From contig SXRG01000025.1 in NCBI GenBank assembly GCA_005793645.1, positions 1 to 31,780 on the forward strand: a stretch of 31,780 bases of DNA. The letters are read 5' to 3'. The position numbers and the translations under genes were made by a program. Shown piece by piece: positions 3,286 to 22,411 of this stretch. The stretch comes from Burkholderiales bacterium (GTDB lineage Bacteria; Pseudomonadota; Gammaproteobacteria; Burkholderiales; Thiobacillaceae). Position 1 is the first letter of the stretch; every line of letters starts with the position of its first letter. Under the pieces are notes generated by a model. That model saw only the letters and a program-made list of their open reading frames with translations. It searched no databases and was not told the DNA's origin.

Positions 3286-3359
3286 TATTATATCCATTAA
3301 AAAACATGGGATTAGCATCGCCTTTGTGTCACTACAGTACATATGATGCATAAAACAGC

Positions 3360-5726
3360 TCACGCCATCCCAATACAATCATTTTTATGATCCCGTTGAC
3401 AGCCGGATGAATGCCAATAACGACGCCGCTCATCGCGCCACAAACGGACAAAACTTCCCTCCGGCAAGAAGTCCAGACGAATCGCGCCTACCTGATCGGT
3501 CCGCCAGATCCGGCTACCAACATCACGATATCGGCCCAATGCCTCTGAATGCGGGTGGCCGAAGGCGTTGTTGCGACCCACCGAAAGGATGGCCTGAGAC
3601 GGGCGTACAGCCGCAATCCACCGCTCGGACGAGGAAGAGCGACTGCCATGATGTGCAACCAACAAGGCTGTACTGGGCAAATGTTCGCGCCGATTTTCTA
3701 GCATTTCCAGTTCACCCAGGCGTTCAATATCAGCCACCAGCAAGACACTACCCCAAGCCGACTCGGCCTTAACCACACAACTTCGATCGTTATTAGAGAA
3801 GTAGGGATTGTCAGCCCAATGCATCGGCGGGTGAAGAACCTCAAAGCGGACACTATCCCATTGCCATGTCTGCCCGGCCACACAGCGCACCTGACGTGAT
3901 CCAGCCTGGGGCTGCCCATACAGTGACCATACCGGCCGGAAAGAGGCCTCGATGCTTGCCGCACCACCACTGTGATCCGAATCCGCATGCGAAACGATTA
4001 GACCATCCAGTCGTCGAACCCCCATCGCCCAGAGGCGCGGCGCAACGATCCTCTGTCCTGCATCGCTACTTTCAAAGGCCGGCCCCGTATCAAACAGCAG
4101 CGTGTGCCGCGCCGTCGAGACCACCACTGCCAGTCCCTGCCCTACATCCAGGGTATCAACCCGCAATACCCCATTGGCCGGACGGTCATCCGTGGGCCAG
4201 AGTAACGGTAGCAACAGAACCAAGCCCAGAAAACGGCGCGGAAACGCCCCTGGCAGTATCAGATATATCAACCCAATCGCCGCCAGAAACAGGGCCTGGC
4301 CACCGGCCTCTCCGACATGCCAAACCGGTTGTGGCCAGGCTGCCAAGATCTCTAAACCCCACATCACGGCCGCAATCACGCTATGCGTCAGCGTTGCCAG
4401 CCCGTCCCAGGGTAGCAATGCCGAAAGCATCGCCAGCGGAACAACCAAAAAGCTAATCACCGGGATAGCGAAGGTGTTGGCCAACGGGGAGACCAGAGAA
4501 AACTCGTGAAACAGCATCAAAAGCAACGGCAACAAGGCCAAACTGGCCACCCACTGGGTCAAGGCCCAGGACCGCCAAAAACGCGGTGGACGCAGGCGTC
4601 CCGCACCGGCATAAAAAAGCGCCGCCACAGCCATGAATGAGAGCCAGAAACCAGCCGAAAGGGCCGCCCAAGGGTCAATCAAGACAACAATGGCCAACGC
4701 AGCCGCCAGAACACGCGAAGGCGAATGCGCCATACTCAACCAAACGCCGATTACCATAACCGCAATCATGTAAAGCGTACGCTGTGCCGGGATACCAAAC
4801 CCGGACAACAGGGTATAGGCCATCGCCAGCAGCAAGCCTGCGATGGCCGCCGCCTTGACGGCCGGCACGCGCAACATCAGCCAGGTAACCTGCCGCCAGA
4901 TGGCGTACACCAATGCATAAATGAGTCCGGACAGCAGCGTGATATGCAGGCCAGAGATACTCATCAGATGGGTTACCCCGGTCATCCGGAACAATCGCCA
5001 CTGCGCATCGGAGATTGCGTTCTGATCGCCTACCGCCAGTGCGATGGCAACCCCGGCATACGGCATCGCCCTGCCTTCTGCATCCGTCAAGCGCTTCAGC
5101 ATTCCCTCGCGCAAGCGGTGACGAAGTGCATCAACATAAGCACGCAAATCTGAGGGACAGTTATTAAAAAATTCTATCGGCCCGGTCGCCGTCGCAAATC
5201 CACGGATACCCCGCTCAAACAACCAACCCTCTATATCCGCGACCCCGGGATTCTGGCTGGCATGCGGGGGGCGGACGCGCAAATCGAGACGCAAACAATC
5301 ACCTCCCCTAGGTGGCGTCGCTAACCACTTGCTTGCAGACATAACTTGCAGGCGTTGCGGCAAAACCCCATTCTCATCCTGCACAACACGCAAGACAAAG
5401 CGCCAACCATAGGCCGTTGCCTGAGGCAGCCCCTCAACGAGGCCAGTGGCCGGGGTACTGAGCCCATCCCAGAGGGGATCAACGCGATCCGCCAGGCGCA
5501 GGTCCGCACGCCAGGCCGCGTAATAAAAACCGGTTGCGAGGGCAATGAGTCCCAAACCACCCCAGCGGAGCACAGCCCAATAACCAGTAGATGGCCAGAG
5601 CCTCAAGCCGTAATGCCAAGCCAGAAGCGCCAGCGGGGCCCACCACAACGGGGCGAAGAACGGCAAAACGGCCTGCGTCTGTAGCCATGCCGCACCCACC
5701 GTGAAACAGATAATTAGCCAACGCAT
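3360..5726 (-). CDS. comEC: DNA internalization competence protein ComEC/Rec2
   Basis: Multi-TM core with HLMSISGLH and RTLYM motifs. C-terminal metallo-beta-lactamase domain (DVGQG, SHADSDH, HHGS, FGHP). Start taken at MRWLII. Confidence 0.95.
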   Translation of the reverse strand: MRWLIICFTVGAAWLQTQAVLPFFAPLWWAPLALLAWHYGLRLWPSTGYWAVLRWGGLGLIALATGFYYAAWRADLRLADRVDPLWDGLSTPATGLVEGLPQATAYGWRFVLRVVQDENGVLPQRLQVMSASKWLATPPRGGDCLRLDLRVRPPHASQNPGVADIEGWLFERGIRGFATATGPIEFFNNCPSDLRAYVDALRHRLREGMLKRLTDAEGRAMPYAGVAIALAVGDQNAISDAQWRLFRMTGVTHLMSISGLHITLLSGLIYALVYAIWRQVTWLMLRVPAVKAAAIAGLLLAMAYTLLSGFGIPAQRTLYMIAVMVIGVWLSMAHSPSRVLAAALAIVVLIDPWAALSAGFWLSFMAVAALFYAGAGRLRPPRFWRSWALTQWVASLALLPLLLMLFHEFSLVSPLANTFAIPVISFLVVPLAMLSALLPWDGLATLTHSVIAAVMWGLEILAAWPQPVWHVGEAGGQALFLAAIGLIYLILPGAFPRRFLGLVLLLPLLWPTDDRPANGVLRVDTLDVGQGLAVVVSTARHTLLFDTGPAFESSDAGQRIVAPRLWAMGVRRLDGLIVSHADSDHSGGAASIEASFRPVWSLYGQPQAGSRQVRCVAGQTWQWDSVRFEVLHPPMHWADNPYFSNNDRSCVVKAESAWGSVLLVADIERLGELEMLENRREHLPSTALLVAHHGSRSSSSERWIAAVRPSQAILSVGRNNAFGHPHSEALGRYRDVGSRIWRTDQVGAIRLDFLPEGSFVRLWRDERRRYWHSSGCQRDHKNDCIGMA

Positions 5727-6336: not shown

Positions 6337-7221
6337 TCAAGGTCTCTCGGAAGGCACGCTGACCGGGTAACCATTGGTCAGCGCCGTGAGAAAAACCTCC
6401 AAGTCGTTATAAGCCTGGCTACCCGGCTTAAGGGCGTTAAATCCTAAGTCCAAGCTACACTGTGCAAAGCGCACTTGCAGGGAAGTAATGCCAAAACGGT
6501 CGCGATAGACCGGATAATGAGCCACATCTCCATATGGCGAGGTTACTACCGTGGCACGCAAGGACTGGCCAATACGACCCACATGGCAGGAGGCACAAGA
6601 CATGTTGTTGCGGCCGACCTTCTGGTGAAAAAGACGCTCGCCTCGCCGCCAGGATTCGCGCAAGGGGCCTGAACTCACATCAATTTTAATGGGCATACCC
6701 AAGCTATGAGATGCCACATAAATAGATACGGCACTGTTGTCATAACTACCGTTTTGTAAGACTTCACCTTCCAATTTAGCGCAATGCTCAATCACCTCTT
6801 CCAGCCCGACCACCCGACCAAGATCTGTGCGAAAAGCTGGATAATGGGTCCGCAAGCCGCGCAGGCTCGTCTCGTATGGCCCGTTAAAGCGATACATGAC
6901 CAGGCAATTCTTGAAGGTTCCCGAGCGGTTCAACTTGTTAAATAAGGTCAGCCCGCGATCCAGCGCCAGATGTCCGGCATGCATTTCCTTGTTGAATGGA
7001 TAATCGAGGTGCTTCCAGTTCAGTTTCCAACTCTGATCTGGGCTTCCGGCCAGGCGCATGTCCAGGTTCTTCGGGTCTTTCCAGTAACGATAGGTCCCTG
7101 TCAGATGATCATCGCCAGAAACATGCGGCAGAAAAGGCTCTGCCGATGTGTATTCCTTGTGTGGTTCATCCGCCCAGGCTGGCAGCAAAAACAGGGCCAG
7201 CATGATAATCAGGATACGCAT
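6337..7221 (-). CDS. soxA: SoxA-like thiosulfate:SoxY sulfurtransferase cytochrome (mono-heme type)
   Basis: Signal peptide, one CxxCH (CASCH), YPVYR, RFAQC (active-site Arg and Cys), and C-terminal NG..V..PSxRP. The first heme site is reduced to lone cysteines (FKNC, IEHC). Confidence 0.85.
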   Translation of the reverse strand: MRILIIMLALFLLPAWADEPHKEYTSAEPFLPHVSGDDHLTGTYRYWKDPKNLDMRLAGSPDQSWKLNWKHLDYPFNKEMHAGHLALDRGLTLFNKLNRSGTFKNCLVMYRFNGPYETSLRGLRTHYPAFRTDLGRVVGLEEVIEHCAKLEGEVLQNGSYDNSAVSIYVASHSLGMPIKIDVSSGPLRESWRRGERLFHQKVGRNNMSCASCHVGRIGQSLRATVVTSPYGDVAHYPVYRDRFGITSLQVRFAQCSLDLGFNALKPGSQAYNDLEVFLTALTNGYPVSVPSERP

Positions 7222-7224
7222 GGC

Positions 7225-7752
7225 TCACTCCAGACTTTGTAGGTAGGCCACGAGATCACGAATCTCTTGGTCAGACAGGATGCCCAAAGGGCCAAAAGGG
7301 GGCATTACAGCGCGCGGCGCGGTAATGCGCACATCAAAGATTTGCTGATAGAGATTCGCATCCGTGTGGCGACGCTGCTTGTAATGATGGAGTGAAGCCC
7401 CAAAGGTACCCGGCCACTCCTCACCGGGGATTTCATGGCAGGTCACGCAATTACCGCGCCAAGGGTCCATTGCGATAACCCGTCCGCGCGCCGCATCGCC
7501 CCGCAACGGGGCCACATAATGAGCCATCTGTGGACTTGGGATAGTCCGCGTCTCATCTTTGCAGAGGGTTGGCCACTGCGAAAAATCTATAAAGTGAGGA
7601 ACCCAGTGCAACTGACCACTGTCGACAACCACCTTCGGTGCCAGAGTTTTGATCGATCTCATTGGATCCACCATCTCTTCCCTGTCCTGTGAGTAGCCAA
7701 GGGGGCTCCCACATATCCACACCACTAAAACGCTCCACCATAGCCTGTGCAT
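7225..7752 (-). CDS. soxX: SoxX-like cytochrome c
   Basis: GDAARG...GNCVTCH...MPPFG...LSDQEIRDLVAYL pattern. Lies 3 nt upstream of soxA. Confidence 0.85.
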   Translation of the reverse strand: MHRLWWSVLVVWICGSPLGYSQDREEMVDPMRSIKTLAPKVVVDSGQLHWVPHFIDFSQWPTLCKDETRTIPSPQMAHYVAPLRGDAARGRVIAMDPWRGNCVTCHEIPGEEWPGTFGASLHHYKQRRHTDANLYQQIFDVRITAPRAVMPPFGPLGILSDQEIRDLVAYLQSLE

Positions 7753-9864: not shown

Positions 9865-9906
9865 TTGATGGGCATCAATCGATACATCCTTTGTTTTCGA
9901 TAGAAT
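9865..9906 (+). promoter_or_regulatory. Class II FNR/Anr/Dnr-type promoter: perfect box plus -10 hexamer
   Basis: TTGAT-gggc-ATCAA at 9865-9878 (centre 9871.5) and TAGAAT at 9901-9906. This places the box at -41.5 for a transcription start at about 9913, 30 nt before the ATG at 9943. Confidence 0.8.
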
Positions 9907-14964: not shown

Positions 14965-16217
14965 CACCTGAACTGCTTGCCCCGGCCGGTTCATTGGCCA
15001 TGCTAAACACCGCCCTAGCCTTCGGCGCTACTGCCATTTACGCCGGCCAACCGCGTTACAGCCTGCGTGTGCGCAACAACGATTTTGGCGACCTGCCCGT
15101 ACTGGCTGAAGGTATACACCGCGCCCATGCCGTCGGAGCGGCCTTTTATCTTGTCTCCAACATCGTTCCACACGGTGCCAAACTCAAAACCTTCCTTGAC
15201 GACATGGCCCCCGCCATTGCCTTGGAGCCCGATGCGCTAATCATGTCCGATCCCGGTTTAATCATGAAAGTGCGCGAGACCTGGCCCGAGGTTCCGATCC
15301 ATCTTTCGGTCCAGGCCAACACCGTCAATGCAGCCAGCGTCCGCTTCTGGCAGGGAATCGGCCTGTCGCGTGTCATTTTATCGCGTGAACTGTCGCTGGA
15401 CGAAATCTCCGAGATCCGCCAAGACTGTCCCGACATGGAACTGGAGGTATTCATCCATGGTGCCTTGTGCATCGCCTATTCCGGCCGCTGCCTGCTCTCA
15501 GGTTACCTCAACCACCGCGATGCCAACCAAGGAAGCTGCACCAACGCCTGCCGCTGGGATTTTAAACCGCAACCGGCCCGTATCGATGCCGCTGGCGACA
15601 CTTGGGTTATCGAAGAAAAAGAACGCCGCAACGGAGCCTTCAATGTCATCGAAGAAGACACCCATGGCACCTACATTTTCAACTCCAAGGACCTGCGCGC
15701 CATCGAACATGTACAACGATTGATCGCGATCGGTGTCGACTCGCTCAAGATCGAAGGCCGCACCAAGTCACCCTATTATGTGGCGCGGACCACGCAGGCC
15801 TACCGCCAGGCTATCGACGATGCCATCGCCGGACGCAGTCTGAATCCGGCCCTTCTCGGCCAACTTGATGGACTGGCCAATCGGGGCTATACGGACGGTT
15901 TTTTCAAACGTCACACCCCGGCCGATTATCAAAACTATCTAAACGGCCATTCCGAGTCAGGCCGTAGCCGCTATGTTGCCGATGTCATCGACTACGACGC
16001 GGCGCGAGGTCTATGCAAAGTGTATTCAAAGAACCGCTTTGCACTCGGCGACCGACTTGAAGTAATTCAGCCCGAAGGCGTCCGCGAACACCGACTGAAC
16101 CGCATCGAGAATATCCACGGACAACCCCTGGACCTCATTCCGGGTGGAGATCATCACGCCTGGATTGATCTACCTGCCGACAGTGTAGGGGCCTTTATCG
16201 CGCGTTTCACCGCCTGA
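14961..16217 (+). CDS. trhP: U32-family tRNA 5-hydroxyuridine modification protein (YegQ/TrhP)
   Basis: ELLAPAG, RYSLRVRNN, HLSVQAN, HGALCIAYSGRC...CTNACR, KIEGRTKS. Confidence 0.9.
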   Translation: MTPELLAPAGSLAMLNTALAFGATAIYAGQPRYSLRVRNNDFGDLPVLAEGIHRAHAVGAAFYLVSNIVPHGAKLKTFLDDMAPAIALEPDALIMSDPGLIMKVRETWPEVPIHLSVQANTVNAASVRFWQGIGLSRVILSRELSLDEISEIRQDCPDMELEVFIHGALCIAYSGRCLLSGYLNHRDANQGSCTNACRWDFKPQPARIDAAGDTWVIEEKERRNGAFNVIEEDTHGTYIFNSKDLRAIEHVQRLIAIGVDSLKIEGRTKSPYYVARTTQAYRQAIDDAIAGRSLNPALLGQLDGLANRGYTDGFFKRHTPADYQNYLNGHSESGRSRYVADVIDYDAARGLCKVYSKNRFALGDRLEVIQPEGVREHRLNRIENIHGQPLDLIPGGDHHAWIDLPADSVGAFIARFTA

Positions 16218-16224
16218 GCCTGAT

Positions 16225-16252
16225 AAAAAACCGCCGGCGAACCGGCGGTTTT
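16225..16252. terminator. Bidirectional intrinsic terminator between the convergent trhP and rhodanese genes
   Basis: AAAAAA-CCGCCGG-cgaa-CCGGCGG-TTTT: perfect GC stem with A/T tracts on both sides. Confidence 0.9.
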
Positions 16253-16274
16253 GAATGACCACGAAAACATCGGA

Positions 16275-17477
16275 CTACTTCTTCTCAACAATCTTTGCAC
16301 TTCCATCCTTCTTGAAGTCAATGTCAGCGTTAAGAAACCAGGTCTTCAGTTCAGAACGCAACAACTTGGCCATGTCGTGTGCCTCGCCACCACGCCCACC
16401 CGCACCGCAGAAGAAAACGATAGGTTTATCTGCCGGCAGAGTGTCCATGCGTTTTTCTAGGGTATTGATCGGTACATTGCTCGCCCCTTTAATGCTTCCG
16501 GCGGCAAATTCATGCGGGTCACGCACATCGATCAGGCGCATACTGTCCGGCTCGGTAGCAAGCAATTTCTCAAAGGCGCTCACCTGAAGAGAACCCGGTT
16601 CCTTGCCCGCAATAAAGCTCGTCACAGCTGCCACCGGGGCAACCACGACAGCCGCAGCCGAAGCTACAGGCGCAACCGGTACAGCTGCGACAGTCGGCCC
16701 GGCACCATAAGCGGCCACCCATCCCGGATAGCCTTCCGGCACGATCTTCACCGCCTTGTAGCCAAGTGCCACAGCCTTCTCCGCCGAATGAGAACTCAGC
16801 ACACAGGACATCCCCTCACAGTAGAAATAAAGGGGTATGGTCTTGTCAGCCGGCAACTTGTCGACCATCTTGTCGAAGGCGCTGTCCGGGATACTAATGG
16901 CACTGGGAATATGCCCCTTGTCGTACTTGCGCTCCTTGGGCCGCGAATCAACCAACAGCATAGGAACCTTGTCGTCTATCTGTTTCTTGATGAAGGCCAC
17001 GCTAACGGCACCCATATTACCCTTAGCAATCCAGTCCGGATAACCCGCAGCATAGACCTTCACATTCGTATAACCCCGCTTTTCCGCCTTGAAGGCCGAA
17101 TTGTGACTGAGCACGCATTTCTCTCCTTCACAATAAAAGATCAGCAAGGTGCCCTTATCAGCCGGCAACAGGTCAGCCATCTTCTCAAAGGCGCTATCCG
17201 GGATATTGACAGCCGTCGGGATATGCCCAGGATCAAACTTACGACCAGCCGGGCGTGAATCGATAATCATGACCCCTTGTGGTTTAGGCAGAACAGCGTA
17301 CTTGGCAACGAACGCCATATCTACAAGGCTATGAAATTTCACCATAACTGGCTCAGCGGCCACGGCTGCCGCCGATGTCTCAACCGCCGGCTTTGCCGCT
17401 ACCGGAGAGGTCTTGGTTGGGGACGAACAGCCCATGGCCATTGCCAACACCAAAGCACTCAACAAAAACCGTTTCAT
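16275..17477 (-). CDS. Lipoprotein with three rhodanese (sulfurtransferase) domains
   Basis: Lipobox-like LAMAMGC. Domains carry D(S/V)R and GHIP/GSIK motifs with active loops FYCEGEKC, FYCEGMSC and FFCGAGGRG. The AAGGAG RBS favours the 17477 start over 17492. Confidence 0.9.
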   Translation of the reverse strand: MKRFLLSALVLAMAMGCSSPTKTSPVAAKPAVETSAAAVAAEPVMVKFHSLVDMAFVAKYAVLPKPQGVMIIDSRPAGRKFDPGHIPTAVNIPDSAFEKMADLLPADKGTLLIFYCEGEKCVLSHNSAFKAEKRGYTNVKVYAAGYPDWIAKGNMGAVSVAFIKKQIDDKVPMLLVDSRPKERKYDKGHIPSAISIPDSAFDKMVDKLPADKTIPLYFYCEGMSCVLSSHSAEKAVALGYKAVKIVPEGYPGWVAAYGAGPTVAAVPVAPVASAAAVVVAPVAAVTSFIAGKEPGSLQVSAFEKLLATEPDSMRLIDVRDPHEFAAGSIKGASNVPINTLEKRMDTLPADKPIVFFCGAGGRGGEAHDMAKLLRSELKTWFLNADIDFKKDGSAKIVEKK

Positions 17478-17488
17478 GACAGTCTCCT

Positions 17489-18721
17489 TCATAGTAAGGT
17501 AAAGCGTTCAGTAGATTCGTTGTATCGCAACCAGAGGTACCAGACCATCAGGATCGCGAAGCTGATGGCCAACGGCCAGCCCCAACCACCCAGCATGTCT
17601 GGCAAATAGGTTTGGGCGCCCAGGGCCGTGAATTCAAGGCCATCAATATTGACATCCGTGACCATCAGGCCGCTGTGCTTGAGCAGTGCACTGGACACCG
17701 AGCCGCCCCAAGCAAAGAAGAACCCAGCCACCCATAGCTTGAGATGTCCTTCACCCATCCGCCACAGCGAGCCAGAGGCGCAACCGCCGGCAAACACCAT
17801 ACCAATACCGAAAATCAGACCACCGGACAATGAACCAACCCAGAAGGTGGGCGGGATCCCCAGATAGGGATCAATCACCTTGGCCGCAAACAGCAACGCC
17901 GCAAGGGGCATGGCGACCGCGAGGGCTACGATGATTGCCTTGGTCATCTCGGTCTCGGCCGTCATAAAAGGTTCCCGGAAGGCACGGGCAAAACAAAGAC
18001 GGGAGCGGTGCATGATGAAACCCAGGGCGAAACCCGCCGGGATCAGGATGGCGCGACCACGCAGTTTCTCGTCCGAGCTATCGTACCAATTCACCGTCCA
18101 GGCCAACAACAAGGCCAGCAGGAGTAGCGCGGCCCAAGGCATGAACCGTAGGACGGAAGCAGAGAACGGCATTGGGCGTGGGGCAGACATCCCCCATTCG
18201 ATATTTTCCAAGGTCCAGAGCAAGGCCTTCAATCCTATGGCCGCACCCAGTAGCAAACCAAACCACATGGCCCAGCCAGCTGGCGAGGCATGTACGAGTG
18301 GAGTAAAAAACCCCCCCGTCGTACACCCCCCCGCCAGGGCCGCACCCAACCCCATGGCCGTCCCACCCAAGGCCGCCCATACATACTCCAGAGGCGGCGG
18401 ACGATGAATGGCAAATTGACGCGAGATCATGGCAGCCGTGAAGGCTCCCAACACCAAGGTCATGTTCATCAGGGCCATGCGGTGCATCAGCGGCGTATCC
18501 AGTTCTGGCTTGATGCCCAGCAACGGACCAAGCCCAATGAGATTATTGAACCAATCCCCGAACAGCTTCATCCCACCGAAGATGCCCCAGAACAGGCCCG
18601 CCATCATAAGACCAAGCACAACTAGCACCATGAGAATAGCCCCGATATAGGGCGACCAAGGTTCTACCAGAACTTGTTGAAAATCCTCACGCAGCCCACG
18701 CACCCAAGCTCTATCACCCAT
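17489..18721 (-). CDS. YeeE/YedE-family sulfur-compound (thiosulfate) transporter
   Basis: Multi-TM protein with exactly three Cys, in GGCTTG, RSRLCF and GGCASG motifs. Confidence 0.92.
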   Translation of the reverse strand: MGDRAWVRGLREDFQQVLVEPWSPYIGAILMVLVVLGLMMAGLFWGIFGGMKLFGDWFNNLIGLGPLLGIKPELDTPLMHRMALMNMTLVLGAFTAAMISRQFAIHRPPPLEYVWAALGGTAMGLGAALAGGCTTGGFFTPLVHASPAGWAMWFGLLLGAAIGLKALLWTLENIEWGMSAPRPMPFSASVLRFMPWAALLLLALLLAWTVNWYDSSDEKLRGRAILIPAGFALGFIMHRSRLCFARAFREPFMTAETEMTKAIIVALAVAMPLAALLFAAKVIDPYLGIPPTFWVGSLSGGLIFGIGMVFAGGCASGSLWRMGEGHLKLWVAGFFFAWGGSVSSALLKHSGLMVTDVNIDGLEFTALGAQTYLPDMLGGWGWPLAISFAILMVWYLWLRYNESTERFTLL

Positions 18722-18756
18722 ATAACATCTCTCCTCAGAGAAAAATGCAACGCGTG

Positions 18757-19146
18757 TTAACTGCAGCGTGCCGGGGCATCACCGTCCTTGGCCCCTTTCT
18801 GCAAAAATTCCTTAACATCCTCGGCCAAGTCGGCCTCAGGCACATCTGAAAACTTTGCCGCAGCCTTATTGGTGGCCTTGATGCTGTCGCGGAACTTGCT
18901 GCTGAAATAAAACTTCACCGCATCCTTACCCTTAGCATGCTTGTCGGCCTGAAAATAAGCCGTCCATTCAGCCTTGGATTTCACGCTCGGAGAAATAGCC
19001 CCACCCGCTTTCTCGGTGTGACACTGGGTGCACACCATCCGGTAATAGACACGACCCCGCTTCCAATCCGCATCAGCCTGGGCCAGCGCAGGAAACAAGG
19101 TCACAGAGACCAGAGAACCCACCATCAATATCGAACGCATCTTCAT
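18757..19146 (-). CDS. Small periplasmic mono-heme cytochrome c
   Basis: Sec signal peptide (AQA), CTQCH, AGGAG RBS, C-terminal ...PARCS. Confidence 0.88.
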   Translation of the reverse strand: MKMRSILMVGSLVSVTLFPALAQADADWKRGRVYYRMVCTQCHTEKAGGAISPSVKSKAEWTAYFQADKHAKGKDAVKFYFSSKFRDSIKATNKAAAKFSDVPEADLAEDVKEFLQKGAKDGDAPARCS

Positions 19147-19221
19147 GATTTAACTCCTATAAAGGTTAAACACTGTTTTACACTAAATATTTAATTGAAC
19201 GTTGTAGTTTGGTCCAAGTGC

Positions 19222-19821
19222 TTAATCCACTTCTTCCCAACCGGTGATCATGGCCTTGATATGGGCCGTGGGGGTATGACCCGCCGTGGTCAGGTAGACA
19301 TGGGCAATCAGGAAAATGAGCATCATGAAGGCCGCCGCCGCATGTAAGAAGGCTACCCACTCCAGACTGAGATAGGCATCCCAGCCCCAGACAATCCACT
19401 GGTCATAGAACAGGTAAAACCAACCACTGACCCAGAGCATCGGGCCAACCATAAGCAGGACCCATAGATATGCCAGGCGTTGCAGTGGGTTGTGCTTCTT
19501 GAGTTGCGTGGCCTTGAACGGGTGCGGGGCATTTTTGAAAATACCAATTGCATAGTACTTGGCCATCGCGTCAACCTTTTGCAGCGTCGGGATATATTGC
19601 TTCCATTCGCCCGTTGTGAAGTGCCAGAAAATGGCAAATGTCCATAAACCCACTAAGGTCCACGCCGCTATCGTATGGACATCCACCGCGTCCGCAAAAC
19701 CTACAAGCGTATAGCTCCCGTGAACCTCAAACCCCGTCACTAGCATGGTGATGATGAGCAGGGCCTGAGACCAGTGCCAGAAACGCTCGAACCGCTTGAA
19801 TACATAAATCTTTTCGCCCAT
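19222..19821 (-). CDS. Di-heme cytochrome b subunit (PhsC/hydrogenase cytochrome b-like)
   Basis: RFWHW, VDVHT, HNPLQRLAY, FLHA and IAHVYL His-bearing TM helices. AGGAG RBS. Confidence 0.88.
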   Translation of the reverse strand: MGEKIYVFKRFERFWHWSQALLIITMLVTGFEVHGSYTLVGFADAVDVHTIAAWTLVGLWTFAIFWHFTTGEWKQYIPTLQKVDAMAKYYAIGIFKNAPHPFKATQLKKHNPLQRLAYLWVLLMVGPMLWVSGWFYLFYDQWIVWGWDAYLSLEWVAFLHAAAAFMMLIFLIAHVYLTTAGHTPTAHIKAMITGWEEVD

Positions 19822-19831
19822 TTTTGACTCC

Positions 19832-21418
19832 TTAATGATGCCCGGCAGCGGGGTTCTTACGCGCCACATAAATTCGAATGGCACCGTGAATCAGAACGCC
19901 CATTAGGGTGGCAGCTGCTGCGAGCCACCCAAGCAAGTCCAGCCAGGGATTGGCACGGCGACCCGGCATGTAGATGCCTTCCACCTTGTCCAGACGCCCC
20001 ACCCCGGTTTGCGGCTGGTGACATTGCGCACAGGTCAACGCATCTTTCTTCGGTGCCACCATGTGCGTAATCGGCCAGGACATCTCGGTACTGATGAACT
20101 CATATTTACCCGAATATGGCGCGCCAGTAGCCTGCATCCCAGCCGTTAACGCCTTGCTCCAGTCAAAGTTGTCCCAGAAACCCGTGCCGCGATCGCCCGC
20201 CGTATGGGGTACCAAGAGGGTCTGGTTGATCGGATCGTAAGGCTGCTTGCCACGGAAGATCTTGACCGGCCAGATCATCGACTTTCCGTCCGTATGGGAA
20301 CCCTCAAAACGATTGATCTGAGTCGGTTTCTCTCCCTTGACCACCTTGTCGCCGAGCAGTGTGTATTTCACCTGGCCATTGAACCAAATGTATTCAGGGA
20401 CAATATTCTCACCCACTACGAAATCTCCCTTACGCGAGTCGTAGATCACATGACCGTGTGCATCTTTCTTCGTGATAGGCTTCCCTTCTGGACTCAACTT
20501 GCCAGCCGTCGACCAATCCCATGACATTTTTGTTGCAACACCACCACGGGCAACGGTCGGGATATGGCAGGTTTGGCAGGCAATCTTGTTGGCGTGGGTG
20601 TTAAGCCGCGCATTCTTGTGTGGCCGGCTGTTGTGACAGGACTGGCAAGTGGCCGGATTAGCGTCCGCCCTCCCTCGAATATGCTTCTCCTTGTCCATCG
20701 CCATGGGGGCGTAGCGACTCCCCGCCACTTTGTGACCGCTGGTCTTATGACAGGTCGCGCAAGTGAAATCCAGCCCAGCCGCATCCATGTGGACATCCAC
20801 ATGGGGCTCGGGCGCCGCCAGCGAACTGTCCATATCTCCGTGCTTGACGCCGTCGCCGCCACCACCGCTAAAGTGGCAAGCACCACAATTATCGCGACTA
20901 CTCTTGCCAACTTTTTGGGCGACTACATTCAGATCCACCGCTTTGATCATCTTGCCCGAGCCTTTTGGAAACTCCATATCCTGATAGGCCGGGTGCCCTG
21001 CCTTGCCGGGCGCCTTGCGATATTTACCCGTTGTATCGTGACAAACCAGACAATCAACATTGTCTTGCTTGCTGAAGTCAAAATTGGCTGAATCCCAGCC
21101 ATAACCCGCATGGCATGAGGTACAAAAGGCCAGATTTGGAGTCGTAGCAATACAGAAATTGTTCAACACGGTCTTCTTGCCAAGTCGCTGGCCATTGGCA
21201 GGGTTGGTGTACTCCCAAGTCCAGTGACTGGTATGCATGACCTGAGTGGAGGCCTCGGTATGACAGGCCAAACAGGCCTTGGTGACCTCAGGACCCGACT
21301 TGAACGGTTTTTTCAACTGTTCGAATTTACTGTGGTCTGCCGTTCCGGCCATTACGGCCCCGACCGACAACCATCCTGACAAAACCCAGAACCACGCGCG
21401 CTTCGTTATAAAAGACAT
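19832..21418 (-). CDS. otr: Octaheme tetrathionate-reductase-family cytochrome c with a C-terminal membrane anchor
   Basis: Eight CxxCH motifs (CLACH, CTSCH, CLVCH, CGACH, CATCH, CQSCH, CQTCH, CAQCH). OTR signatures HWTW, GKxxxxNNFC and GGGDGVKHGD. Sec signal peptide and a C-terminal hydrophobic helix. Confidence 0.92.
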   Translation of the reverse strand: MSFITKRAWFWVLSGWLSVGAVMAGTADHSKFEQLKKPFKSGPEVTKACLACHTEASTQVMHTSHWTWEYTNPANGQRLGKKTVLNNFCIATTPNLAFCTSCHAGYGWDSANFDFSKQDNVDCLVCHDTTGKYRKAPGKAGHPAYQDMEFPKGSGKMIKAVDLNVVAQKVGKSSRDNCGACHFSGGGGDGVKHGDMDSSLAAPEPHVDVHMDAAGLDFTCATCHKTSGHKVAGSRYAPMAMDKEKHIRGRADANPATCQSCHNSRPHKNARLNTHANKIACQTCHIPTVARGGVATKMSWDWSTAGKLSPEGKPITKKDAHGHVIYDSRKGDFVVGENIVPEYIWFNGQVKYTLLGDKVVKGEKPTQINRFEGSHTDGKSMIWPVKIFRGKQPYDPINQTLLVPHTAGDRGTGFWDNFDWSKALTAGMQATGAPYSGKYEFISTEMSWPITHMVAPKKDALTCAQCHQPQTGVGRLDKVEGIYMPGRRANPWLDLLGWLAAAATLMGVLIHGAIRIYVARKNPAAGHH

Positions 21419-21499
21419 AGTAACCCCGCACAAAAAATCTATACGCGATATTAGAATCTATTAAGCGCATTACAAAATCAAAAAATATTATGCGCACCA

Positions 21500-22411
21500 T
21501 CAAAGCCAAGCCGCACCACGCACCCCACTGCTATCCCCATATTTCGGTGGAATCAATCGCGTACGCACACAGTCTGAAAAAACATACTGTTCCCATAGCG
21601 TTGGCACCCACTCATAGAGGTGCGCAAGATTCGACACCCCACCACCAAGAACAATGCAATCAGGATCAATAATATTGATCACATGGGCCAGGCTACGCGC
21701 CAAACGATCGGCGTGACGCGTCAAAGTAGCGGTGCAGGCCACATCTCCCGCCTTCATCCTTTCGACGAGAATCTCAACACTCAAAGAAAAACCCGTAGCA
21801 CGCTGGTGATCAGCAGCGAGACCGGGTCCCGATAGCCAGGTTTCGATGCAACCGGCCTTACCGCAATAACACGCGGGTCCTGGATTCTCGTCGACATTAG
21901 ACCAAGGGAGTGGATTGTGACCCCACTCGCCGGCAATGGCATTGGGGCCATTCAACACCTGCCCGCGCACCGCAATGCCACCGCCGACCCCGGTCCCCAG
22001 AATCACCCCAAATACACACTCGGCCCCGGCCGCAGCCCCATCAGTTGCCTCAGACAACACAAAACAGTTGGCGTCGTTGGCGATCTGCACCGGCCTTTGC
22101 AGACGGGCCTCGATGTCCTCGCGCAAAGGCTGTCCATTCAGACAGGTTGAGTTGGAGTTACGCAATCGCCCGGTCGTCGGGGATATTGCCCCTGGCGTGC
22201 CAACTCCAACCCGACCTCGCCCACCCAGCGCCGTTTCAGCCGCAAGAACCAACCCCACGATGGCCTCGATCGTCCCGGCATAGTCGCCCTGCGGGGTAGC
22301 AACCCGTTGCCGCCAGTGTTCAGTGCCCTGATGATCTAACGCAATCAGTTCAATCTTGGTGCCTCCCAGATCGACACCCAAGCGCCAAGTTTCTGTTCGT
22401 CCGTTTTTCAT
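21500..22411 (-). CDS. mak: ROK-family sugar kinase (fructokinase-like)
   Basis: GVDLGGTKIE, NDANC, GTGVGGG, GEWGH, CYCGKAGCIE zinc motif, SSGVRGAAWL. Confidence 0.88.
   Translation of the reverse strand: MKNGRTETWRLGVDLGGTKIELIALDHQGTEHWRQRVATPQGDYAGTIEAIVGLVLAAETALGGRGRVGVGTPGAISPTTGRLRNSNSTCLNGQPLREDIEARLQRPVQIANDANCFVLSEATDGAAAGAECVFGVILGTGVGGGIAVRGQVLNGPNAIAGEWGHNPLPWSNVDENPGPACYCGKAGCIETWLSGPGLAADHQRATGFSLSVEILVERMKAGDVACTATLTRHADRLARSLAHVINIIDPDCIVLGGGVSNLAHLYEWVPTLWEQYVFSDCVRTRLIPPKYGDSSGVRGAAWL

Follow-up and report, generated by a model that had tools for sequence, protein, structure and literature searches.

The octaheme cytochrome OTR, whose crystal structure dates from 2004, still has no agreed physiological role, and metagenome surveys routinely score it as "tetrathionate (or nitrite) reduction". 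The question is raised again by contig SXRG01000025.1 of assembly GCA_005793645.1, from a Burkholderiales bacterium of the Thiobacillaceae. The contig is 31,780 nucleotides long and is called the window here. At 16275-21418 it carries a cluster of five genes in which OTR is followed by a cytochrome b, a small cytochrome c, a YeeE channel and a rhodanese. The analysis suggests that in many Proteobacteria OTR is part of a quinone-linked membrane complex whose genes are linked to those for cysteine-based sulfur carriers, sulfurtransferases and a sulfur channel. The cluster gives a testable clue to the role of OTR in the cell and could replace a vague annotation with specific experiments. Its genes, with families named by Pfam and NCBIfam profile matches, are:

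19832-21418, minus strand: OTR, 528 residues, with a signal peptide, eight CxxCH motifs and a C-terminal transmembrane helix (TIGR04315, PF11783)
19222-19821, minus strand: cytochrome b, 199 residues, of the four-histidine, di-heme type and the PhsC/FdnI/HyaC fold family
18757-19146, minus strand: periplasmic monoheme cytochrome c, 129 residues, with a signal peptide and one CxxCH motif
17489-18721, minus strand: YeeE/TsuA-family membrane channel, 410 residues (PF04143, 165 bits)
16275-17477, minus strand: triple rhodanese, 400 residues from the likely start at 17477 (405 residues from 17492)

The five reading frames are open and lie head to tail. The initial annotation of the locus had reported co-oriented genes with gaps of 10, 75, 35 and 11 nucleotides, and these gaps hold when the rhodanese starts at 17477. 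This ATG has an AAGGAG 7 nucleotides on its 5' side, and a Shine-Dalgarno sequence is present before each of the four downstream genes.

The OTR protein scores 631.5 bits against TIGR04315 (cut-off 375; 631.8 bits in the genome search) and matches the OTR of Shewanella oneidensis (SO_4144, PDB 1SP3) with E = 2.8e-114 over the 439 residues from 33 to 471. All eight CxxCH motifs read from its translation are kept in 58 homologues. In the same homologues K81, C89, K192, H193 and the pocket motif GGGDxVKHGD, which is also kept in the Shewanella enzyme, are at least 95% conserved. A match to the K-x7-C spacing of Shewanella OTR had been noted before, and the alignment with 1SP3 agrees with it. Three parts of the gene are of interest:

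21176-21178, minus strand: codon of Lys81, aligned with Lys56 of Shewanella OTR
21152-21154, minus strand: codon of Cys89, aligned with Cys64 of Shewanella OTR
19865-19951, minus strand: C-terminal transmembrane helix, residues about 490-518, with His511

Lys56 and C74xxC77H78 make up the heme-2 site of the Shewanella enzyme (PMC3769277), and C74xxC77H78 aligns with C99xxC102H103 of the window protein. Judged from this alignment, Lys81 is the counterpart of the axial ligand at the catalytic heme 2. Cys64, and with it Cys89, is presumably placed in the active-site pocket. Retention of the lysine-ligated catalytic heme and of the neighbouring cysteine is therefore strongly supported at the level of sequence. 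The two enzymes differ at their C-termini. The crystallised Shewanella form is soluble and has 443 residues, whereas the window OTR has about 55 extra C-terminal residues, including a hydrophobic helix whose His511 is at least 80% conserved in the 58 homologues, and it has an obligate cytochrome b. Because of this membrane helix, the window OTR departs from the soluble, unanchored form of the crystallised enzyme.

The cytochrome b scores 85.4 bits against PF01292 (cut-off 30.1). Across 52 homologues its four histidines show at least 95% conservation, and their number suffices for two b-hemes. An assignment as PhsC (NF011582), the best NCBIfam hit, was rejected, with 121.9 bits below the cut-off of 204 and no PhsA or PhsB gene in the cluster. 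The protein is predicted to partner OTR in the membrane and to be where quinol and quinone are exchanged. OTR has a C-terminal helix and a four-histidine partner; therefore, its eight c-hemes would be wired to the quinone pool. The arrangement resembles that of the PhsC, FdnI and HyaC/HydC anchors, which also have four histidines and a partner that contributes one C-terminal helix, as in FdnH and the hydrogenase small subunits. It differs in that the partner is a multiheme c-type cytochrome and not the iron-sulfur subunit of a molybdo- or NiFe-enzyme, and the equivalog cut-offs for PhsC, hydrogenase and Fdn anchors are not reached.

The pairing of the two genes is conserved. A class-wide sample of 401 genomes contained 28 that were OTR-positive, and 31 of the 32 loci fetched match OTR at 44% identity or more. 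The cytochrome b gene lies directly downstream of OTR in 30 of these 31 loci, and the exception is a 4.4-kilobase contig. Natural OTR::cytochrome b fusions occur in two other genomes, one of 736 residues and one of 777 residues (L083:6001-8334). For a structure model of the complex each of three runs gave an interface score ipSAE of 0.73, while the best of three controls scored 0.00; 55 of 80 solved complexes attain this mark, as do 3 of 110 mismatched pairs. The modelled interface would bring the heme-8 motif (463-468) and the tail helix (483-518) of OTR against residues 33-46 and 139-179 of the cytochrome b. The model supports binding of the two proteins, and it may echo remembered Fdn and hydrogenase architectures. 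OTR and cytochrome b are strongly supported as one unit, which is the core of the cluster. The quinone link proposed in the initial annotation is upheld by the position of the cytochrome b gene, by the fusions and by a complex model that exceeds its controls.

Cytochrome c, YeeE and rhodanese genes of these families accompany the core pair. A search seeded with YeeE gave 25 loci from Sulfuricellaceae, Rhodocyclaceae and other Proteobacteria, in which the cytochrome c gene is 5' of YeeE, the rhodanese gene is usually 3' of it and OTR-cytochrome b is alongside. The trio and the pair can be co-linear as in the window, in tandem with OTR downstream, or convergent. The order is cytochrome c, rhodanese, OTR, cytochrome b in Dechloromonas and cytochrome c, YeeE, OTR, cytochrome b in Sulfuricaulis. 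A metagenome OTR that is 41% identical has the order rhodanese, rhodanese, YeeE, cytochrome c, OTR. The cluster is a core pair with an optional trio rather than a fixed five-gene module. The module as first described thus stands with regard to co-conservation of its genes and gives way with regard to their order and content, which vary.

The linkage was counted in a sample of the order, also of 401 genomes. Of these, 32 have OTR and 10 have the cytochrome c family. Each of the 10 genomes with the cytochrome c is OTR-positive; in 9 of them it lies within 3 kilobases of OTR and in the tenth it is at a contig end. Fisher's test gives p = 2e-12 for genomes that are relatives and so not independent, with shared ancestry uncorrected. 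On these counts chance adjacency of the trio and OTR was rejected, and the co-occurrence check that had been suggested for the locus shows co-conservation far beyond chance, kinship again being uncorrected. In a maximum-likelihood tree the trio-linked OTRs fall mostly in one clade of 15 rows (support 100/99), and the apparent exceptions inside this clade are loci cut by contig ends. Two trio loci (L041 and L042) do not adjoin an OTR, and one of these two genomes has an OTR elsewhere.

The cytochrome c is the least familiar member of the trio. Its only family matches are weak ones in Pfam, with none in NCBIfam. A profile search of PDB sequences finds class I cytochromes over the N-terminal heme-motif region only (best E = 0.0017), and a Foldseek search of the model against PDB returned nothing below E = 1. 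In alignment A1, C39, C42, H43, H70 and C128 are invariant, as is a DKH motif, and there is no conserved methionine. The tail reads GAKDGDxPAxC[SQN]. Among the 120 homologues listed, all 120 have the penultimate cysteine and 56 have no methionine after the heme motif. The residue in question is:

18763-18765, minus strand: codon of Cys128, the penultimate residue of the cytochrome c

The AlphaFold2 model has a pLDDT of 81 overall and 63 in the last block, the low-confidence parts being the signal peptide and the tail. Cys128 is a candidate for a sulfur-carrying arm or for the sixth heme ligand, and for the latter role His70 is a candidate as well. The His/Cys hemes of SoxXA and TsdA are the point of comparison for such a ligand. 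The small cytochrome c of the initial annotation does not appear to be a plain electron carrier, having no conserved methionine and an invariant penultimate cysteine.

The YeeE protein shares its fold family with TsuA of the thiosulfate importer TsuA-TsuB (YeeE-YeeD; 6LEO, 8J4C). All three relay cysteines are kept, as C133, C243 and C314; they match those of 6LEO, the YeeE of Spirochaeta, and are conserved in 27 homologues. Relative to 6LEO the two halves are swapped, with residues 229-406 corresponding to chain residues 8-186 and residues 46-159 to 214-319, so that the protein is circularly permuted. In place of a TusA-like YeeD/TsuB neighbour there are a periplasmic rhodanese and a cytochrome c. 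Assignment as TsuA was rejected (114.5 bits against a cut-off of 400, 76.4 against 645, and no TusA-like TsuB/YeeD gene in the cluster), and so was assignment as YedE/FdhT, for which 103 bits is far below the cut-off.

The rhodanese matches PF00581 in three stretches, with 150.8 bits in total. The loop is of the form C-x-G-x-x-C in domains 1 and 2 and of the classical form C-x-x-G-x-R in domain 3. C121 and C126 of domain 1 and C362 of domain 3 are at least 95% conserved, and domain 2 has an equivalent cysteine pair. Export signals are found in all homologues. A lipobox occurs only in the host genus and at one other locus, the rest having a plain signal peptide. The membrane tether first reported for this protein is therefore not a general trait, and the sequence indicates a periplasmic lipoprotein in the host genus. 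The selenoprotein TsoB (NF045694), a rhodanese/DsbD fusion, was also considered and rejected, since only the N-terminal part of the window protein matches, on the rhodanese part of TsoB, with 110.8 bits (cut-off 805). The UxxxxU pattern of TsoB corresponds to C-x-G-x-x-C here; the window rhodanese has cysteine in place of selenocysteine and no DsbD domain. The window thus has an unsplit, permuted YeeE and a rhodanese that stands as a protein of its own, and its cysteine tail belongs to the cytochrome.

The host has a second OTR-cytochrome b pair, which lacks the trio. Compared with the pair in the window, its OTR is 69% identical and its cytochrome b 91% identical. Beside it is a further protein that ends in a cysteine:

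Contig C118 (L014), 3912-5558: second OTR
Contig C118 (L014), 3301-3900: second cytochrome b
L014:5598-6152: DUF302 protein, 184 residues, 40 nucleotides upstream of the second OTR, with an N-terminal membrane anchor and a Pro/Gly-rich tail ending in Cys

The DUF302 protein is unrelated to the cytochrome c and is a second Cys-tailed partner of OTR. A Gly-rich run followed by a terminal cysteine is present in 14 of 14 aligned members. Full-length members occur in 17 genomes of the order sample, all 17 of which are OTR-positive and all 17 of which have the gene directly upstream of OTR. One or both of the Cys-tailed families are present in 19 of the 32 OTR-positive genomes. The two OTR-cytochrome b pairs of the host sit on different contigs. 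This is unlike L045 and L030/L032/L033, where two paralogous pairs flank a cytochrome c-YeeE-rhodanese trio in one locus.

Genuine SoxYZ genes hold the same position in other lineages. A gammaproteobacterial locus (L077:7481-11769) has a rhodanese, the 736-residue OTR::cytochrome b fusion, a SoxY paralogue ending GGAGGCG and SoxZ, and another distant OTR-cytochrome b pair adjoins SoxY, SoxZ, a SoxB-like gene and DsbD. In a published survey of lucinid symbionts, otr likewise lies beside a divergent soxY (PMC11237559). The likeness of the window proteins to SoxYZ, with its GGCGG swinging arm, is that a cysteine stands at the end of the flexible tail of a small periplasmic protein beside a sulfur redox enzyme. 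The Cys-tailed protein of the window is a monoheme cytochrome, with neither the SoxY fold nor a GGCGG arm. It has no sequence or fold similarity to SoxY, and only the position of the cysteine near the C-terminus is alike. OTR-cytochrome b appears to have recruited at least three unrelated putative carriers, namely a Met-free cytochrome c, a membrane-anchored DUF302 protein and SoxY paralogues. The sulfur link drawn in the initial annotation is strengthened by these data, since the accessory genes travel with OTR and are replaced or joined elsewhere by SoxYZ, other rhodaneses and Cys-tailed DUF302 proteins.

In a more distant OTR clade of 19 rows neither Cys-tailed family was seen, with scattered candidates only. 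One of these is a 154-residue exported monoheme cytochrome c just 5' of OTR (L065:8288-8752), which ends FCN, with a penultimate cysteine, and may be a further independent Cys-tailed partner. The contig of another distant OTR (P0308) is too short to show neighbours. OTR-cytochrome b pairs without Cys-tailed partners have recurrent neighbours of their own. These are DUF6858 (130 residues), a SLAC1/TehA-type anion channel, a NifX-like protein, AhpC/TSA-type redoxins and sigma-54 activators (L019:8276-8668, L063:7784-8749, L020:8559-9050 and relatives).

In the reading preferred here, the membrane-bound OTR-cytochrome b unit would use electrons from quinol to reduce S-S bonds of sulfur adducts in the periplasm, adducts that may be held on proteins, with sulfur transfer by the rhodanese and import by YeeE. 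We consider the chances of this reading to be about evenly balanced. Quinol electrons would pass over the two b-hemes to heme 8 and along the chain of c-hemes to heme 2, where an S-S bond beside a sulfonate or a sulfane sulfur would be cleaved reductively. The substrate could be free tetrathionate or a protein-bound analogue, a thiosulfonate or persulfide on a cysteine, and the carrier cysteine could be that of the cytochrome c tail or one of the rhodanese. The rhodanese domains may load, shuttle or unload sulfur, and the cysteine-relay channel of YeeE may bring thiosulfate or sulfane sulfur into the cytoplasm. In a Sox- and Dsr-containing autotroph the imported sulfur could be oxidised by the cytoplasmic Dsr pathway or assimilated. 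The host genome encodes SoxB, DsrAB, RuBisCO and a NarG fragment, and the presence of SoxB, DsrAB and RuBisCO therefore suggests a small-genome autotrophic sulfur oxidiser. PMC11237559 cites tetrathionate reductase activity of Shewanella OTR in vitro. Tetrathionate is the free analogue of cysteine S-thiosulfonate; therefore, this activity fits a free as well as a carrier-bound substrate. As to direction, the lysine-ligated heme and the redox potentials favour reduction, and oxidation would fit the Fdn/hydrogenase-like anchor.

Two groups of known systems are comparable in function. Psr with its rhodanese Sud in Wolinella, Ttr and Phs are also quinol-linked periplasmic sulfur reductases served by a periplasmic sulfurtransferase. 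The likeness is functional only, since the catalytic subunit in the window is a heme enzyme, and no molybdopterin or four-cluster iron-sulfur subunit was found among the five window proteins with Pfam and NCBIfam. MccA/SirA with MccCD/SirCD is likewise an octaheme periplasmic reductase of a sulfur compound with dedicated membrane subunits to the quinone pool, but it belongs to another octaheme family. The MccCD/SirCD membrane module is of the NrfD/iron-sulfur type, and no accessory Cys-relay proteins are known for MccA/SirA. In the papers searched, OTR was found only as an annotation in genome surveys. The search returned no description of the module, in agreement with the initial annotation, which knew of no functional characterisation of the complete set, and none of the DUF302-Cys protein or the cytochrome c family. 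What is new here, as far as sequences can tell, is a Met-free cytochrome c with a constant penultimate cysteine on a low-confidence tail and a DUF302 protein with a Gly-rich-Cys end beside a second OTR-cytochrome b pair.

Several points weigh against the preferred reading. Neither Cys-tailed family is present in 13 of the 32 OTR-positive genomes of the order sample, and one genome with the trio (the other of the two with L041 and L042), of unknown completeness, has no detectable OTR. SoxY and SoxC were not found in the host assembly, which is 78% complete, so that their absence is not proven. The paper cited above also credits Shewanella OTR with reduction of nitrite and hydroxylamine in vitro. 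The tail cysteine of the cytochrome c could have a plain heme-ligand role. By analogy with FdnI and HyaC, the quinone site of the di-heme cytochrome b would be on the cytoplasmic side; therefore, electron flow from quinol to the periplasm would consume proton-motive force. Such a site may fit the substrate-oxidising direction at least as well.

A narrower form of the preferred reading can be put forward more tentatively, as we think it rather less probable. The natural substrate of OTR-cytochrome b would then be sulfur that a dedicated carrier holds on its terminal cysteine, and not a free anion. OTR would be a carrier-dependent, quinone-coupled S-S oxidoreductase that strips or remodels thiosulfonate or polysulfide bound to protein, and its product would go to the rhodanese and YeeE for import. 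If true, this carrier model would end the debate on what the OTR family does and supply the missing route for sulfur from periplasm to cytoplasm in oxidisers that have both Sox and Dsr. It would also define a heme-based, molybdenum-free branch of sulfur respiration and oxidation and explain why a streamlined lake sulfur oxidiser has two OTR-cytochrome b copies.

The alternative that survives best, although we think it unlikely, is a plain version of the initial annotation, in which OTR-cytochrome b is a molybdenum-free quinol reductase of tetrathionate and polythionates which acts on free anions only. The cytochrome c would be an ordinary carrier, and YeeE and the rhodanese would salvage thiosulfate. 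It agrees with the cited tetrathionate reductase activity of the Shewanella enzyme, with the homology of YeeE to a thiosulfate importer whose three cysteines are kept, and with all of the co-conservation data. However, it leaves unexplained why the cytochrome c lacks a methionine ligand and has an invariant penultimate cysteine, and why the unrelated DUF302-GGC and SoxY proteins stand at the same place beside other OTR-cytochrome b pairs.

Slightly less probable again is that the pair works in the opposite direction, as a sulfur compound:quinone oxidoreductase. It would oxidise a low-potential sulfur species of the periplasm, such as sulfide, polysulfide, sulfite or carrier-bound sulfane sulfur, pass the electrons through the membrane to quinone and generate proton-motive force, with the trio supplying the substrate. 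The host is a sulfur-oxidising autotroph, and a periplasmic redox subunit with a C-terminal helix and a four-histidine cytochrome b is the architecture of formate dehydrogenase-N and the uptake hydrogenases, enzymes well established to reduce quinone. The chemistry of OTR argues for reduction instead. A lysine-ligated catalytic heme is a hallmark of reductive enzymes (NrfA, OTR), and the midpoint potential of the thiosulfate/tetrathionate couple is too positive for the reduction of ubiquinone. OTR is also not known to have the tyrosine cross-link of oxidative octaheme enzymes.

It is improbable that OTR-cytochrome b serves detoxification or respiration of nitrogen oxides (nitrite, hydroxylamine, NO) and that the nearby sulfur genes are functionally separate. 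The in-vitro activities on nitrite and hydroxylamine, the NarG fragment of the host and the occurrence of OTR-cytochrome b in denitrifiers such as Dechloromonas and Azoarcus would suit such a role. Against it stand the cytochrome c-Cys and DUF302-GGC families, which are confined to OTR-positive genomes and nearly always adjoin OTR, and no nitrogen-cycle gene is recurrent beside OTR among the annotated neighbour clusters. A module for selenium or tellurium oxyanions (selenite and tellurite, with a thiol reactivity like that of tetrathionate), in which YeeE acts like the selenium protein YedE, is very improbable, since the scores that suggest it (YeeE with 103 bits against YedE/FdhT and about 115 bits against TsuA, and the resemblance of the rhodanese to TsoB) are all far below their cut-offs, and the TehA/SLAC1-type channels beside some plain OTR-cytochrome b pairs and the selenoproteins among TIGR04315 members (PMC13188914) are set against bona fide Sox carriers as partners in other lineages and a host that is a sulfur oxidiser.

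The ends of the cluster and one of its spacers are as follows:

16225-16252, both directions: intrinsic terminator, with a 7-bp G+C stem, a TTCG loop, a T6 run and an A4 flank
19147-19221, minus strand: spacer between the cytochrome b and cytochrome c genes, 75 nucleotides, AT-rich
21419-21499, minus strand: upstream region between the ROK-family gene and OTR, 81 nucleotides, AT-rich

The strong terminator reported at the end of the cluster is confirmed by folding (-20.1 kcal/mol, z = -3.1, and none of 200 shuffles folds as well), and a consensus terminator scan did not pick up the hairpin. Because of the flanking A4 run it is able to act in both directions, and it is common to the cluster and a convergent peptidase-U32 gene that ends at 16217. 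The cluster promoter is presumably located in 21419-21499, as the layout of the genes suggests. An internal promoter in the 75-nucleotide spacer is possible and was considered because the trio is a separate convergent unit in other genomes (L035, L037, L046, L047). A sigma-70 consensus scan of 15800-22000 gave no promoter match, including in these two regions, and there is no FNR-type box upstream of OTR. The only perfect TTGAT-N4-ATCAA box of this type in the window is at 9865-9878, before an unrelated plus-strand gene.

The genes flanking the cluster are housekeeping genes that encode a U32 peptidase, a PLD-like protein, a ROK kinase, SseB and an FAD-linked oxidase. Elsewhere in the window, at 6337-7752 on the minus strand, a gene for a SoxA/TsdA-type cytochrome (PF21342) adjoins one for a small class I cytochrome c. 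This pair is probably soxXA and is apart from any other sox gene in the window.

The host assembly has 1.3 Mb, and the window is its contig C122. Assemblies of relatives in the family have 2.3-3.9 Mb, and two OTR-cytochrome b copies are still kept in the smaller and incomplete genome. The closest relatives of the host are betaproteobacterial genomes from lakes and groundwater, Sulfuricellaceae among them. A search of sequencing runs with the cluster and with the OTR gene alone listed only two freshwater DNA metagenome runs, possibly the source sample, and no RNA run. A near-identical locus, with a YeeE that is 96% identical, is found in a public metagenome-assembled genome labelled Bordetella parapertussis (L024, CAMDCO010000016.1), and this label looks wrong for the genome of a lake sulfur oxidiser.

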